Source of the DNA: a virus
DNA length: 30,395 bases
UHGV virus genome: UHGV-1557986
Reading direction: 5' to 3' (one strand)
The notes under the pieces are model-generated. The model searched no databases. It was given only the letters and a program-made list of their open reading frames with translations, and was not told where the DNA came from. The number at the start of each line of letters is the position of its first letter. The stretch's first letter is position 1. Below, piece by piece: positions 14,401-21,221 of the stretch. The translations under genes and the position numbers were made by a program.

Positions 14401-14430
14401 ATATTACACTAATAAATTTATTAGAGCAAT
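14401..14430 (-). promoter_or_regulatory. C1-type operator(s) overlapping a leftward promoter for the tRNA-tci-ban operon: perfect operator (revcomp ATTGCTCTAATAAATTT, 14414-14430) overlapping a second 15/17 site (14403-14419)
   Basis: On the minus strand: -35 TTGCTC (inside operator), 17-bp spacer, -10 TAATAT. Operator overlaps the dmt stop codon (14421-14423). Confidence 0.6.
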
Positions 14431-17400
14431 ATACCCAAAACGTCATGAGCTACACCTCGAGTGTCCCCCTTACAAGACACAGAACGTCTGGCAAAAAGAG
14501 GTTCCACTCTGAAGCCACTGTCATGATAAAGCTCTCTGATGTTTGGCGCGCCACTGTTAGTAATGAGAACCTTTGCACCTCGACGATGAGCATCCGTCAA
14601 CAGAGACACCAGGCGTTTTTGCTCTTCAAACTTAAAGTCATGACCGGAATAGTTCGTGAATCCCTCTGTATTTGGAAGCGGTTCATACGGCGGATCGCAA
14701 AAGATGACATCTCCTTCTCCGGCAGCTTCAATCACCGCTGCAAAATCACCGCATACAAACTCAGACCGCCCTTCCGCACCGAGGAAGGCTTCCATCTCCT
14801 GTAATGGGAAATACGGAGTTTTATACTTCCCATAACCGACATTGAACTCACCGGCCTGGTTGTAACGCGTCAATCCGTTAAAACAATGTCGGTTCAGGAA
14901 CAAAAACGCCGCTGCGCGATGTAAATCATCATAGACTTGTTTGTTAAACGCATTCCGTACTGCCAGGTATCCTTCCTGTGTGTTGTAGTCCTGGAAGAAA
15001 CGATGTGCCAGAGTGATAAGTGAATGCGCCTCGCGTTGCAGAGTCTTGTAAAAGTTAATCAGGTCAGCATTCACATCATTTAGCAGATTTTCCTGGTATC
15101 CGGCATTCATGAAGACAGCTCCGCCACCAACGAAAGGTTCAATCAGGCGCTTCCCTTCTGGCAAATAGCGAAAGATTTGTTCCAGAACACCAAATTTTCC
15201 ACCAGCCCATTTGAATATGGACCGTTCGAATTCTGCCGCTGGTTTAACTTTTCGCTCTTTTGTTTCACTTCCTTCTTTCTGCCGACATACGGCCTTAGTA
15301 ATCCGATCGCCAATCCAGCGCATTACTGGTATTGCCATACTATTGCCGATCGCTTTGTAACGCGGTCCGTCAGCTGCAAGCATCGCGGCCTCTTCTTCGC
15401 TTAAATCAGGATAGTTATTGCGAAGGTATGCCAGTTCATCTGAAGAAACTTTTTTACGCTTTTCCGTAGGGATCAACGTATGCCCATCAGGAAAACCTTG
15501 CAGCCTTTCACATTCGACAGGGGTAAGACGGCGTATTCTACCGTCGCCGAGCAATACAATTGGTGCTTCATGGTTACATGTTAAAGTTGGTGCCGAATTA
15601 TCGGTTTTTATCTCAGCCCCTCCTTGCCCATGTGCCATGGCAACTATGTTTGTATCATCGCAAGATCTGATAGCGATGTTTGAAGTATATCTGGTAGTTT
15701 CCTTCCCCTCGCCTCTGCTCGGCGCAATATCCCGGCGCACGCCTTCGAACTCAAAAAGTACCGTTGCGGGATCGAGGTCTGTTCGAGCACTTGCGACAAC
15801 AAACACGCGTCGGCGTCGTTGTGCCACTCCGAAGTATTGGGCATCAAGGATTCTCCAGGCCACCTTTCGCTGCGGCCCATAAATACAACCACACTGCGGC
15901 CACTTTGGAGCATGGCAACCGGTTTTGCCATCCCACCGCCAGAACGCGTTACTTTTTCCTGATTCAGGTCGATCACCTGGTTCAAATGGCGCATCTTCTC
16001 CAGCCAATCCGGCAAGGAAACATCCGAAGGCGTTATCTGCCGATGACAAGACTCCTGGGACATTTTCCCAGACAATAACGGCTGGTTTGAGAAATGACTC
16101 AGCCCGTTTGTCGTCAATTGCATTTGCAAGCTCCACATACTTTAAAGTTAGCGCGCCACGCTCATCATCAAGCCCACCACGTAATCCCGCGATACTGAAT
16201 GCCTGACAGTTATGGACCACCGCACCATTGAGGATATAGGAATGATCACCTTCGACTTCTATGTTGTATACAGTATCTAGGCCTACCGATTTAAACTCTT
16301 TGACTGTTCGTAAAAGCATTCCATGAGCCAATCTTGATTTACGTGACAATTTCTGCGGGCAGATTGTTACCTGATAATAATTCCGTTGATTTACCACGCG
16401 ATCCTCGATCACTTTTTTGGGCTCAACTTCAATAAAGCTGACCGAAGAAACATAACCACAAGTCTGTGACAACCCCGCAACGCCCCAAGCAAGCGCAGGA
16501 CTAACACTATTAATTCTAAATCCCGCTTTACCACTTGGTGTCCCATCAGTATCAAGATAGCCTTGTAAAAACACATGACGCAATGGATGCGACATCACCC
16601 ATGCAGGGATACGCTTAGCATGGCTTAACTCGCCAAAATGTTCATTAAGCCAATTGGCATAACACGTATCATTCAAGGTTACTTTGATGCTCCCTCGGAT
16701 TTCGCTTGCCACGGAAAATATGTTTTCTGGTATGCGGCAATGAAACTTTCTCAATTTCTGGCAATTTATGCCAAAAACAACCGCCTTCTTAGATTTACCT
16801 CTCCATCTCCTAATATATCCATCGCCAACATAAGCGCCCGCAAGATACATAGCCTGTTCTTCAGACAAGAACCGAGAACAAATATCTGGAGATGCAATAT
16901 TGAAATTAGTTAGAGCGCACCATTGATATCCCGGCATATCACATGCTGCTCGCCATTCCGGTTCAGACAACAACTCTCTCTTAAAATATGTGCCATTTTT
17001 CCGGGTGTTTTGGGCTTTCCACCGAACAGCCAGGAAGGGATGGTCATTGGTTGTTCTTATACCTAAAGGCTGCCCAACGGCATTAAGTAACCCCGTATTA
17101 GCTATTTTTGAACCAACTCTTTTTACTTGTTGTAACCGCCCGAGATGACTGACTACGTAATCGCCAGGGCAAACATCTTCTATTGGTTTATAACCATTTT
17201 TACAAAGAACCATATGCCCCGCGGTAAAACATGGTGTTCCCCCGACGAGCACGTCAGGGGATTCGATTTCCCCAGCCAAGACTTTTTTGGCAAGTTTTGT
17301 CATGTCGCCAAGGTTGGCGACATGGGGCCAGCGGAGCGCAAGAACGGCCGATGGAAAAGGCTCGATTTCAGCAAACCAAACCGGACGCATACCCAACGGT

Positions 17401-17462
17401 TCCCAGGCAATACTCGCGGCTTCAATTCCACTGCAAACAGATCCATAGCACAGCTCTTTCAC
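14421..17462 (-). CDS. dmt: bifunctional DNA methyltransferase: N-terminal C5-cytosine MTase domain interrupted by an intein, C-terminal Dam-type N6-adenine MTase domain; 1013 aa precursor, GTG start overlapping the hrdC stop
   Basis: C5 motifs: GGTP|CQAFSIAG (motif IV), [11 protein letters not shown] (ENV), [18 protein letters not shown]. Dam motifs: [32 protein letters not shown]. Confidence 0.9.
16209..17231 (-). other. Intein (341 aa) with LAGLIDADG homing-endonuclease domain, inserted between Pro and catalytic Cys of C5-MTase motif IV
   Basis: Starts CFTAGHMVL...[16 protein letters not shown] (Hint block A), TTNDHPF (block B), [11 protein letters not shown] and [11 protein letters not shown] (two LAGLIDADG motifs), ends ...[12 protein letters not shown] followed by +1 Cys of CQAFS. 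Confidence 0.8.
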
Positions 17463-18641: not shown

Positions 18642-18712
18642 CTGACGACTCCAAACAAATGCCCATTGAAGGGCGATGGCTGAATGGTACCGAAAACACG
18701 ATATAAAAAACA

Positions 18713-18729
18713 ATATTTATTAGAGCAAT
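18713..18729 (-). promoter_or_regulatory. C1-type operator (16/17) upstream of the uhr-hrdC-dmt operon
   Basis: ATATTTATTAGAGCAAT = revcomp of ATTGCTCTAATAAATAT; TTGCTC -35-like hexamer inside the operator. Confidence 0.5.
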
Positions 18730-18810
18730 TTTGTAATAAGTAAACGCCATACAGACCACAAATAACCTAAGTTAAAATAACGAAAATCAGAGCAAATCAT
18801 TGGTGACGAC

Positions 18811-19095
18811 GTGGCAAGTATTGCAACAAAAGACAGCATTTGTTCGGGGCACGGAGGATTCCCATCCAGGCCTCCTGTAGAGAGTGAACCACTACTTAAA
18901 GTCAACGGAGTCGAAGTGTTAGTTGATGGTAAGCAATATGCACAGCATACCGATGGAAACAGTACGCACGGTGGGCAAGCTATATCAACCAGGGCATGGT
19001 TTACCGTCAATGGTAAAGGGATCGTATGCGTTGGTGACCCTGTTTCATGCGGATCTACCGTAGCGTCCGGAGACGGCCTAGTTCAGGTAAGTTAG
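18811..19095 (+). CDS. PAAR-like spike-tip protein (putative), 94 aa, GTG start
   Basis: Repeated HGG and VNG...VGD motifs plus Cys positions (ICSGHGGFP, LLKVNGVEVLVDG, THGG, FTVNGKGIVCVGDPVSCG) resemble PAAR-domain proteins. Confidence 0.4.
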   Translation: MASIATKDSICSGHGGFPSRPPVESEPLLKVNGVEVLVDGKQYAQHTDGNSTHGGQAISTRAWFTVNGKGIVCVGDPVSCGSTVASGDGLVQVS

Positions 19096-19103
19096 GAGAT
19101 ATC

Positions 19104-19892
19104 ATGCTGGAAAAAGACTACCAGTTATCCGCATATAAAAAATTGGCCGCAGCCGGTGGGATGAAAACACTTGGTGCCATAACATCGGCACGAAACAGTG
19201 CTAACACGGCAAAACAGCTTGCAGAAGAATTGATCGGATTAATTTTGGATACAATTGTCTATCCCGACACTATTACCAGTTATGTTTCAACGATCAGAAC
19301 AACCACAACAGGCTTAACGAACATTGTCGAACTGGCAACTAAGCACGCGGACCTGTTGGCTGGTTATGCAGATCTGTCAATGCTGCTTCAACTCGATATT
19401 GGTTGGGATGTTTACTGCCGTGCTAATGAGCGAGAAGTTTCAGAACTGCCGATCTCTATTGCCATTGGTGATGTGACTATTACTAAATCGCTTGAGGACG
19501 CTGTAAACGCGCTTAATACATCAAGTTTAGTTGCTGCTATGGGGGAGATTAACCAGACCCTTAACACTGGCTCAGGAAGCTCGTCAGGCTCTGGTTCAGG
19601 CGGCGGCACTGCCACTCCCCCACCAGCACTAACAGAAGAGCAAATTGAATCTCTGAAAGTAGCAACTGAACAGTTTGGGGTTGTTTTCAACCAGACAACA
19701 GCGCCCACAACTGCGTTACAACAGCAGTATGAACGAGCGAATGAAAGCGCCAACGTAGCCATAACTGCTTATAACCATGCTATCGGTACCGCGCTTGCGG
19801 AAGCATCAGCAAATAAGGCCAGCACAGCCAGCGCAGTTGCCGCTTTGGTTCCTGATTCTGTTCTTGATGAATTAAACAAAGCGGCACAGTAA
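19104..19892 (+). CDS. hypothetical two-domain protein with Gly/Ser linker (GSGSSSGSGSGGG), 262 aa
   Basis: Strong SD AGGAG overlapping the PAAR-like stop; ORF track start 19047 judged too far upstream. Confidence 0.5.
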   Translation: MLEKDYQLSAYKKLAAAGGMKTLGAITSARNSANTAKQLAEELIGLILDTIVYPDTITSYVSTIRTTTTGLTNIVELATKHADLLAGYADLSMLLQLDIGWDVYCRANEREVSELPISIAIGDVTITKSLEDAVNALNTSSLVAAMGEINQTLNTGSGSSSGSGSGGGTATPPPALTEEQIESLKVATEQFGVVFNQTTAPTTALQQQYERANESANVAITAYNHAIGTALAEASANKASTASAVAALVPDSVLDELNKAAQ

Positions 19893-19931
19893 CAAAGGAC
19901 TTCATTGATAATTTTTCTTCAGGAGGAAGAC

Positions 19932-20354
19932 ATGTCATTCTTTTCTACGTTAAAAACAGCTTTGTCTTTGAAGGAGAAACTTGCTGCTACTGGTGTTCTT
20001 GTTCTGATTTGCGCACTTGTTGGTGCTGGGTTTGCATGGGAACGTCATCAGCTAAAGCAAGCCATGGAGAAAATTGGCAGTCTTGATCAGGCTGTTAAGG
20101 AACGTGATAAGTCAATAATGGATCTTAACCAGACCATTGAGACGATGAACAAAGCAGAGCAACATTTTCACAGCCAGGAAGTGAAAAATGAATCAGAACA
20201 AGCCAAATATGCTGACAGGCAAATGGAACGAAAAGCTGAAGTTCAGAAACAACTGGTTGCGTCGGGTAGTGTTCGCCAGCGCATTCCTGTTGACACTCAG
20301 CGGTTGCTCCGGGAGTCGATCAGCGAATTTAACGCCGACGCCGACAAAGGTTAA
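19932..20354 (+). CDS. i-spanin-like protein (Rz-like: N-terminal TM helix, periplasmic coiled coil), 140 aa
   Basis: SD AGGAGG; TM segment LAATGVLVLICALVGAGFAW then charged coiled-coil region. Confidence 0.5.
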   Translation: MSFFSTLKTALSLKEKLAATGVLVLICALVGAGFAWERHQLKQAMEKIGSLDQAVKERDKSIMDLNQTIETMNKAEQHFHSQEVKNESEQAKYADRQMERKAEVQKQLVASGSVRQRIPVDTQRLLRESISEFNADADKG

Positions 20355-20520
20355 TCACCCTGCCCCCAAAAGTGCGTTTATGTGCAGGATGCCAGAGTTT
20401 AGCAGTGAATATTTTGATGATCTGCCAGCCTATATCCTTGATACAGAAACGATGCTGATGGGGATTAACAGGAAGAATCGCAACGTTAATGATTACAACC
20501 ACGCTATCAGTGGTAACTAA
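20188..20520 (+). CDS. o-spanin-like outer-membrane lipoprotein (Rz1-like), overlapping the i-spanin gene in another frame; true start uncertain (possibly TTG 20257 giving MRRVVFASAFLLTLSGC)
   Basis: Lipobox LTLSGC after a hydrophobic h-region; mature part Pro-rich with one Cys; overlapped architecture typical of Rz/Rz1. Confidence 0.45.
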   Translation: MNQNKPNMLTGKWNEKLKFRNNWLRRVVFASAFLLTLSGCSGSRSANLTPTPTKVNHPAPKSAFMCRMPEFSSEYFDDLPAYILDTETMLMGINRKNRNVNDYNHAISGN

Positions 20521-20531
20521 AAGGGATTTTT

Positions 20532-20924
20532 ATGTCTGATAAAGTAACAGTAAAGCAAACTATCAACAAAGCGACTTCAATCTACAAAATTGAGCAAATC
20601 ACTGTTGGCAAGCCAGGATCTGAACAATACCGTCATGCTTTCGAGCTTGCCGATCAGCTTGGTTTAAAACACCCGGATTGCATCGAGCATGTATTTCCGA
20701 CCTATGCTGATGAGCAATGCACTCATGTTCTTACCGAAGAGGATTTTTTCAGCACTGAAGAACGAGAAGGCGTTGATCGCTGCATTGGTGTGATTTGTTC
20801 TTCGGTAAGTGATGAGTTATTCCCTAATGTGCCTGAATATGGTGGTATTGGATACCAGTTCCTGTATGAAGGCGATGAGCTTAAATGCTATGAACATGGT
20901 CTTCTTATCGAAAGCGTAGAATAA
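20532..20924 (+). CDS. hypothetical protein, 130 aa
   Basis: ORF track; no motif recognised. Confidence 0.5.
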   Translation: MSDKVTVKQTINKATSIYKIEQITVGKPGSEQYRHAFELADQLGLKHPDCIEHVFPTYADEQCTHVLTEEDFFSTEEREGVDRCIGVICSSVSDELFPNVPEYGGIGYQFLYEGDELKCYEHGLLIESVE

Positions 20925-20937
20925 TACCCTTCCTTCC

Positions 20938-20961
20938 AACCGGCTATGTTGGCCGGTTTTT
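20938..20961 (+). terminator. rho-independent terminator-like hairpin
   Basis: AACCGGC-tatgttg-GCCGGTT followed by TTT. Confidence 0.4.
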
Positions 20962-20964
20962 CAC

Positions 20965-21221
20965 TTATCCACATTATCCACTGGGTAGATCCAATAATTA
21001 GGTCCATACAGATCCCAATTAGATCCATATAGATCCCTGATCGTTGCAGGCCGCGCCACGTCTGGCTTAGAAGTGTATCGCGATGTGTGCTGGAGGGAAA
21101 ACGATGTGTGCTGGAGGGATAAAAATGTGTGCTGACGGGTTGCTAATGTGTGCTGGCGGGATATAGGATGTGTGCTGACGGGAAAGCCTGGGTAGTTATC
21201 ACCACTTATAAAAACTATCCA
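20965..21221. other. oriR-type plasmid replication origin: tandem DnaA boxes (TTATCCACA 20965-20973, TTATCCACT 20974-20982), cluster of five GATC sites in AGATCC repeats (20986-21045), iterons, and another DnaA box (CTATCCACA 21213-21221)
   Basis: Motifs read directly; arrangement matches the known P1 oriR layout. Confidence 0.8.
21082..21184 (+). repeat. incC: five direct 19-bp iterons (GATGTGTGCTGGAGGGAAA family), 21- to 23-bp periodicity
   Basis: Five copies at 21082, 21103, 21124, 21145, 21166. Confidence 0.85.

Follow-up and report, generated by a model that had tools for sequence, protein, structure and literature searches.

The coupled upfC and upfB genes of a phage P1 variant encode a PAAR-type spike tip and a protein that probably decorates it

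The stretch of DNA analyzed here (30,395 nucleotides (nt) of UHGV virus genome UHGV-1557986, called the window below) carries two adjacent genes, upfC and upfB, whose products appear to form the distal tip of the tail spike in a variant of bacteriophage P1. UpfC is, with near certainty, a PAAR/T4 gp5.4-type spike-tip protein that caps the trimeric spike protein gp5, and both its identity and its position are well established. We consider it quite likely that UpfC caps gp5 while trimers of UpfB decorate the UpfC cone as an accessory tip structure. The location of UpfB on the spike tip, taken by itself, is probable; it has been published at medium resolution and is supported here by synteny. The role of UpfB at this site can only be inferred. 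The features that carry this reading are listed below, with coordinates referring to the window.

18811..19095, + strand: upfC, encoding a 94-amino-acid (aa) PAAR/T4 gp5.4-type spike-tip protein (PDB, Pfam, PHROG, cryo-electron microscopy (cryo-EM) paper).
19094..19098, + strand: AGGAG, the Shine-Dalgarno sequence of upfB, overlapping the upfC stop codon TAG (TAGGAG; read from the sequence).
19104..19892, + strand: upfB; its product, acidic and all-helical with 262 aa, has been reported to be the 'tripod' at the spike tip (phrog_1559, AlphaFold2 model, PMC12810830).
19575..19631, + strand: the Gly/Ser/Pro-rich flexible linker of UpfB, residues 158-176 (predicted local distance difference test (pLDDT) scores, composition, indels).
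8550..9182, + strand: gene 5, encoding the trimeric central spike capped by UpfC (PDB 9vzk_q, Phage_base_V, P1 annotation).

Positions 18700-20600 are 100% identical to the Escherichia phage P1 record OP279344.1 and, in reverse orientation, show 95% DNA identity to the P1 reference NC_005856, in which the annotated order is upfC, upfB, then ppfA, mlp, upfA, oriR, and repA. The remainder of the window likewise matches P1. These matches indicate that the window is a P1 variant and that its upfC and upfB are biologically the same genes as those described in the recent structural work (PMC12810830). The pair has already been described in the literature and the PDB and is not a discovery: the upfC annotation in the P1 RefSeq record notes 31% identity to T4 ORF 5.4, UpfC was predicted to be the spike tip via HHpred (Gonzales et al. 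2022, PMC9024508), its structure was solved in 2025-2026, and UpfB was named 'tripod' in January 2026 (PLoS Pathog, PMC12810830). What the present analysis adds are small gains in annotation, namely the synteny of the PAAR and UpfB genes, a corrected start codon for upfB, and a candidate late promoter.

An earlier note on this DNA, made from the letters of the sequence, had pointed to a 94-aa PAAR-like open reading frame (ORF) with HGG, VNG, and VGD motifs, and this frame is indeed present at 18811-19095. It opens with GTG at 18811 and closes with TAG at 19093-19095, and its product carries HGG at residues 14-16 and 53-55, VNG at 31-33 and 66-68, VDG at 38-40, and VGD at 74-76. The protein matches PDB chain 9vyi_A, a molecule named 'UpfC', with an E-value of 1.7e-60 and 93 of 94 residues alike, the one difference being residue 85 (Ser here, Ala in the PDB chain). 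Matches over nearly the full length were also obtained to T4 gp5.4 (5iv5, E 8.6e-8; 4ku0, E 1.2e-7), to 9f4b_BA (E 4.8e-10), and to 4jiv_D (E 3.7e-4), which we take to be the Vibrio cholerae PAAR protein VCA0105. Among profiles, phrog_281 ('PAAR motif') aligns with residues 1-93 (E 2e-30), and the NCBIfam model NF033420 (T6SS_PAAR_dom) gives E 4.5e-9 at 36.3 bits, below its equivalog cut-off of 124. Because the score falls so far under this cut-off, UpfC is better regarded as a phage relative of the gp5.4 type than as an orthologue of the PAAR proteins of type VI secretion systems (T6SS), with which it shares a fold family by sequence (PF05488, NF033420, 4jiv). The two Pfam families that the earlier note had named for a hidden Markov model check gave different outcomes: PF05488 was matched with E 8.5e-6, yet at 26.4 bits against a gathering score of 27.0 it is borderline by the Pfam threshold, and a match to DUF4150 was not found, PF05488 being the sole Pfam family reported at E up to 1.

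PAAR structures hold a metal at the apex through three His residues and one Cys. In UpfC, C11, H14, H46, and C80 are invariant across 19 distinct homologues, and H53 is kept in all but the most distant of them (L037, described below); H14, H46, H53, and C80 align with identical residues of T4 gp5.4 in the HMMER alignment. Some public records call the PAAR gene 'alanine racemase' or 'putative phospholipase', names that look like annotation errors.

The placement of UpfC on the spike comes from cryo-EM. A monomer of UpfC on trimeric gp5 is described both in the 2026 PLoS Pathog study (PMC12810830) and in a 2025 preprint on the P1 baseplate, and PDB entries exist for UpfC (9vyi) and Gp5 (9vzk). 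The PAAR profiles, the solved structures, and the cryo-EM model (PMC12810830) together bear out the PAAR call of the earlier note and its pairing of the protein with a gp5 spike. The gpV-like spike gene that the note had placed at 8550-9182, about 10 kb off, is P1 gene 5, and its end lies 9.6 kb from the upfC start. Along its whole length the gene 5 product aligns with PDB 9vzk chain q ('Gp5'; E 5.8e-136), and it matches Pfam Phage_base_V with E 9e-5, at 23.2 bits against a cut-off of 23.8. Gene 5 closes the late operon 26-25-7-24-6-5 in the P1 annotation, and the 9.6-kb gap in P1 is filled by dbn, ban, tRNA genes, tciA-C, upl, plp, dmt, hrdC, and uhr, most of which lie on the other strand. 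The note had taken the separation from the baseplate genes to be meaningful. We attach no special significance to it, since the gap is absent in a Thaumasiovibrio relative, where the pair follows about 1 kb after gene 5.

The T4 spike offers the closest parallel for UpfC: gp5.4 is also about 95 aa long, aligns with UpfC over its full length, caps the trimeric gp5 beta-helix in one copy, and is dispensable for plaques. According to a T4 preprint, gp5.4 and UpfC are the sole pair of T4 and P1 tail proteins that match by BLAST. The two systems differ in that P1 gp5, unlike T4 gp5, comes without a lysozyme domain, and in that T4 has no UpfB-like gene downstream of gp5.4 and no reported tip tripod.

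The downstream 262-aa ORF with an overlapping Shine-Dalgarno sequence, also reported by the earlier note, was recovered as described, with AGGAG (19094-19098) overlapping the upfC TAG and standing 5 nt from the upfB ATG at 19104. Both RefSeq and GenBank start upfB at ATG 19047, which gives a protein of 281 aa and an overlap of 49 nt with upfC. This start is probably too far upstream. Full-length UpfB homologues, from 97% down to 18% identity, all start at the equivalent of ATG 19104 (ML[E/D/S]...), and on the strength of these homologue starts, the Shine-Dalgarno sequence, and the stop/start overlap found in relatives, ATG 19104 is the better call. The arrangement indicates that upfC and upfB are translationally coupled.

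UpfB has a pI of 4.5, and its AlphaFold2 monomer (pLDDT 81; predicted template modeling score, pTM, 0.76) consists entirely of helices outside the linker. The Gly/Ser linker noted previously is present at residues 158-176 and has low pLDDT, falling below 50 at residues 159-169; it is 32% Gly and 26% Ser, and its length differs among homologues through indels. At the N-terminus, which is highly conserved, the monomer model also has low pLDDT (residues 1-20). Sequence inspection revealed no signal peptide, lipobox, transmembrane segment, or membrane-spanning hydrophobic stretch. UpfB matches phrog_1559, a family of unknown function, over its full length (E 3.9e-136), while searches of Pfam, NCBIfam, and PDB sequences gave no match, as did Pfam scans of ten distant family members. 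Fold searches returned generic helical bundles only, with no specific fold match. In a BFVD search, UpfB weakly matched DUF7217 proteins of like length from Pectobacterium phage Wc4 and Serratia phage 3M (probability 0.98-0.99, TM 0.28-0.40); this lead is unconfirmed, as DUF7217 was reported by none of the Pfam scans of UpfB and the ten distant members.

An exhaustive profile search yielded 89 clusters of the UpfB family at 50% identity. Full-length members have 236-265 aa, about one third of the listed matches are shorter fragments, and even the most distant ones, at 18-20% identity, match phrog_1559. All elements in which the family was found are P1/D6-like and about 80-100 kb in size. Phages that carry it are P1, P7, D6, SJ46, RCS47, and JK004, and the annotated collections hold 744 plasmid records with a member, all roughly of P1 size and mostly from Escherichia and Salmonella, with one from Acinetobacter. 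The related loci that were compared with P1 are the following.

L002-L005: UpfB 44-49% identical to that of P1; a 94-aa PAAR gene, UpfB 3-36 nt downstream, then an Rz/Rz1-like pair.
L007-L036 (30 IMG/VR loci): UpfB 26-33% identical to that of P1; PAAR homologue with E 1e-36 to 1e-41.
L006: UpfB 24% identical to that of P1; PAAR directly after gene 5, with UpfB 3 kb on, before gene 23.
L037 (Thaumasiovibrio, 85.9-kb contig): UpfB identity under the phmmer threshold; a contiguous block on one strand.

In the IMG/VR group, the last base of the PAAR gene is the first base of the UpfB ATG in 30 of 30 loci, and a gp5 homologue, wherever it falls inside the fetched flank, is found on the same strand, upstream by about 2-8 kb. 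The Thaumasiovibrio block runs gene 6, gene 5, one 260-aa ORF, PAAR, UpfB, and capsid gene 23, with about 210 nt from PAAR to UpfB. Since the pair precedes the capsid gene here with no spanins in between, the conserved partner of UpfB would be PAAR and not the spanins. In P1, a rep/par module stands between the spanins and gene 23; the compared relatives lack it. Taken together, the comparison points to PAAR with UpfB as the conserved link, in the vicinity of the spike gene and the late head genes. Divergence within the same loci is uneven, UpfB being the fastest to change (26-33% identity, versus 56-67% for UpfC and 44-51% for gp5).

In L006 (IMG/VR UViG 2609460227), not only the PAAR gene but also several genes of the tail and head are broken up into different reading frames, at 4650-4947 and elsewhere. 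Because several other genes of this locus are split too, the break in PAAR is likely an assembly error, and the split genes as a whole are probably assembly errors rather than pseudogenes.

For UpfB itself, the central published observation is a 'three trimeric tripod (UpfB)' anchored on the spike tip/UpfC (PMC12810830). Several points weigh against this placement. The tripod was seen in a medium-resolution map into which an AlphaFold3 trimer was fitted, with no atomic model, and the terms 'mass spectrometry', 'LC-MS' (liquid chromatography-mass spectrometry), and 'SDS-PAGE' (sodium dodecyl sulfate-polyacrylamide gel electrophoresis) are unmatched in the main text of that paper (PMC12810830). 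The 2022 study of the virion proteome, done by LC-MS/MS, the tandem form of the method (PMC9024508), does not name UpfB anywhere in its main text or in Table 1, the 2025 preprint on the P1 baseplate makes no mention of it, and in L006 the UpfB gene sits 3 kb away from the PAAR gene. In addition, knock-down of upfB or upfC by CRISPR interference (CRISPRi) leaves plating unreduced. The 2022 proteome likewise did not detect UpfC by LC-MS/MS and missed gp5, gp26, and PmgA (PMC9024508). An in-frame deletion of upfC causes no plaque defect (PMC9024508), and the strains listed in the supplement of the 2022 study include an in-frame deletion of upfB (PMC9024508). Both genes are dispensable for plaque formation.

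In the PAAR-effector pairs of T6SS loci, the gene next after PAAR encodes a cone-binding partner, and the order of upfC and upfB resembles this; unlike T6SS effectors, UpfB comes without a toxin domain, an immunity gene, or a known adaptor. The earlier note had proposed that the downstream protein is a spike-associated cargo or an injected effector. Its association with the spike is supported by the tripod density (PMC12810830) and the conserved, coupled gene pair, while the cargo or effector part is not supported, as neither a toxin or enzymatic domain nor a specific fold match was found for UpfB. We therefore regard it as unlikely that UpfB is a cargo borne on the PAAR tip in the manner of non-covalent T6SS effectors and delivered to the host envelope at contraction, where its target might be, for example, the membrane, the periplasm, or the passage of DNA. 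The gene order and the fast evolution of UpfB do fit such a protein, and its adjacency and coupling to PAAR are conserved, with binding to the cone reported from medium-resolution density only (PMC12810830). It is a long shot that UpfB is the first phage protein to be separately encoded, carried non-covalently by PAAR, and delivered to the host envelope; if true, it would be the phage counterpart of the PAAR-bound effectors of T6SS. A delivered UpfB might matter only on hosts with altered lipopolysaccharide (LPS), as reported for T4 gp5.4.

We find it improbable that UpfB is a chaperone or adaptor outside the virion that keeps PAAR soluble or loads gp5, similar to the Eag/DUF4123-type adaptors of T6SS. 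Its tight coupling to the PAAR gene and its small, acidic, helical character would suit such a factor, and it goes unnamed in the main text and tables of the proteome (PMC9024508) and in one of the two cryo-EM descriptions. However, that proteome also missed bona fide low-copy baseplate proteins (PMC9024508), the tripod density at the tip is fitted by a UpfB trimer (PMC12810830), and no likeness to known adaptor families was found in the Pfam and NCBIfam searches. Hardly credible, finally, is a part for UpfB as a lysis or envelope accessory acting with the PpfA/Mlp spanins, with which it is apparently co-transcribed. Although an Rz/Rz1-like pair comes directly after upfB both in P1 and in relatives of the D6 type, UpfB lacks a signal peptide, lipobox, or transmembrane segment, and the Thaumasiovibrio PAAR-UpfB pair runs straight into the capsid gene.

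In the picture we favor, with UpfB as a decoration of the spike tip, the coupled upfC-upfB pair, probably transcribed late, would build the distal tip of the P1 tail spike. A single-copy UpfC cone, held by its conserved Cys and His residues, caps the trimeric gp5 beta-helix at its blunt end, sharpening the membrane-piercing spike. UpfB, which is acidic, soluble, and helical, would most likely sit as trimers on the three pseudo-equivalent faces of UpfC, making it the most distal axial component of the virion. As an accessory decoration of the tip, UpfB would be the first to meet the outer membrane or LPS; on contraction of the sheath it may come off or travel in together with the spike. UpfB is a fast-evolving protein, found only in the P1/D6 lineage, and probably forms the extreme end of a phage that is in wide use for transduction. 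Knowing whether it acts as a sensor of the cell surface, comes off, or is delivered could account for differences in host range between P1-like phage-plasmids; many of these carry resistance genes.

A sigma-70 scan found no promoter upstream of upfC, and an Lpa-type late-promoter motif was sought for this reason; the part of the P1 RefSeq record that was examined has no annotated promoter for upfC. The pattern used, AAGTNACTT-N4-TANAAT, was derived from the window's two annotated late promoters, LP26 (4383; AAATGACTA-gcgg-TAGAAT) and LP23 (24866; AAGTGACTT-tcaa-TAAAAT). At two mismatches or fewer, 0.74 matches are expected by chance in the whole window, and exactly three were found: LP26, LP23, and the following site.

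18760..18778, + strand: candidate Lpa-dependent late promoter of the upfC operon (AAATAACCT-aagt-TAAAAT; motif scan).

The candidate ends 32 nt 5' of the upfC start. In the alignment, the same place upstream of the PAAR gene is occupied by a perfect AAGTAACTT-N4-TACACT in L002-L004 and by AAATGACTG-N4-CATACT in L005. Counting against the proposal, the P1 reference has a third mismatch in the 18760-18778 box. From the motif and its position we infer that an Lpa-dependent late promoter may drive an upfC-upfB-ppfA/mlp-upfA operon. A further box was noticed at 6088-6106 on the + strand, at the boundary of gene 25 and gene 7 in the tail operon (AAGTGACTG-N4-TAACCT). This sequence differs from the late-promoter box by one mismatch, but its -10 element is poor, and it could have arisen by chance.

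The rest of the apparent operon comprises the following features.

19932..20354, + strand: ppfA, Rz-like inner-membrane spanin (phrog_89, E 1.8e-24; P1 annotation).
20188..20520, + strand: mlp, Rz1-like outer-membrane lipoprotein spanin (phrog_30284, E 6e-76; phrog_456, E 6e-5).
20532..20924, + strand: upfA, encoding a 130-aa acidic protein, the last gene of the apparent operon (phrog_1453 only).
20936..20965, + strand: terminator-like hairpin and T-run closing the upfC-upfA string just before oriR (consensus scan, sequence).

The spanin-like neighbors mentioned in the earlier note are thus ppfA and mlp, both of which match Rz-like spanin PHROGs. The mlp gene begins inside ppfA in another frame (overlap 20188-20354) and extends 166 nt beyond it, and its translation contains the lipobox-like sequence LTLSGC. 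The profile matches and the overlap mark ppfA/mlp as a predicted overlapping spanin pair of the Rz/Rz1 type, adjoining the plasmid origin, and ppfA, being on the same strand, probably belongs to the same operon as upfC and upfB. UpfA has no Pfam or NCBIfam match, and among the compared related loci upfA was matched in the P1 reference only. A CRISPRi study found it to be non-essential.

Elsewhere in the window, the Dmt protein (14421-17462, - strand) has 1013 aa, versus 754 aa in the P1 reference. It carries an insertion of 341 aa from Cys78 to Asn418 (ending ...VVHN and followed by Cys419), located exactly in the catalytic GTP-C-Q motif of the C5-methylase. The Pfam matches of the insertion, Hint_2 and LAGLIDADG_3, are typical of an intein that contains a homing endonuclease. 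Dmt also departs from the P1 reference in a central segment (approximately residues 599-640).
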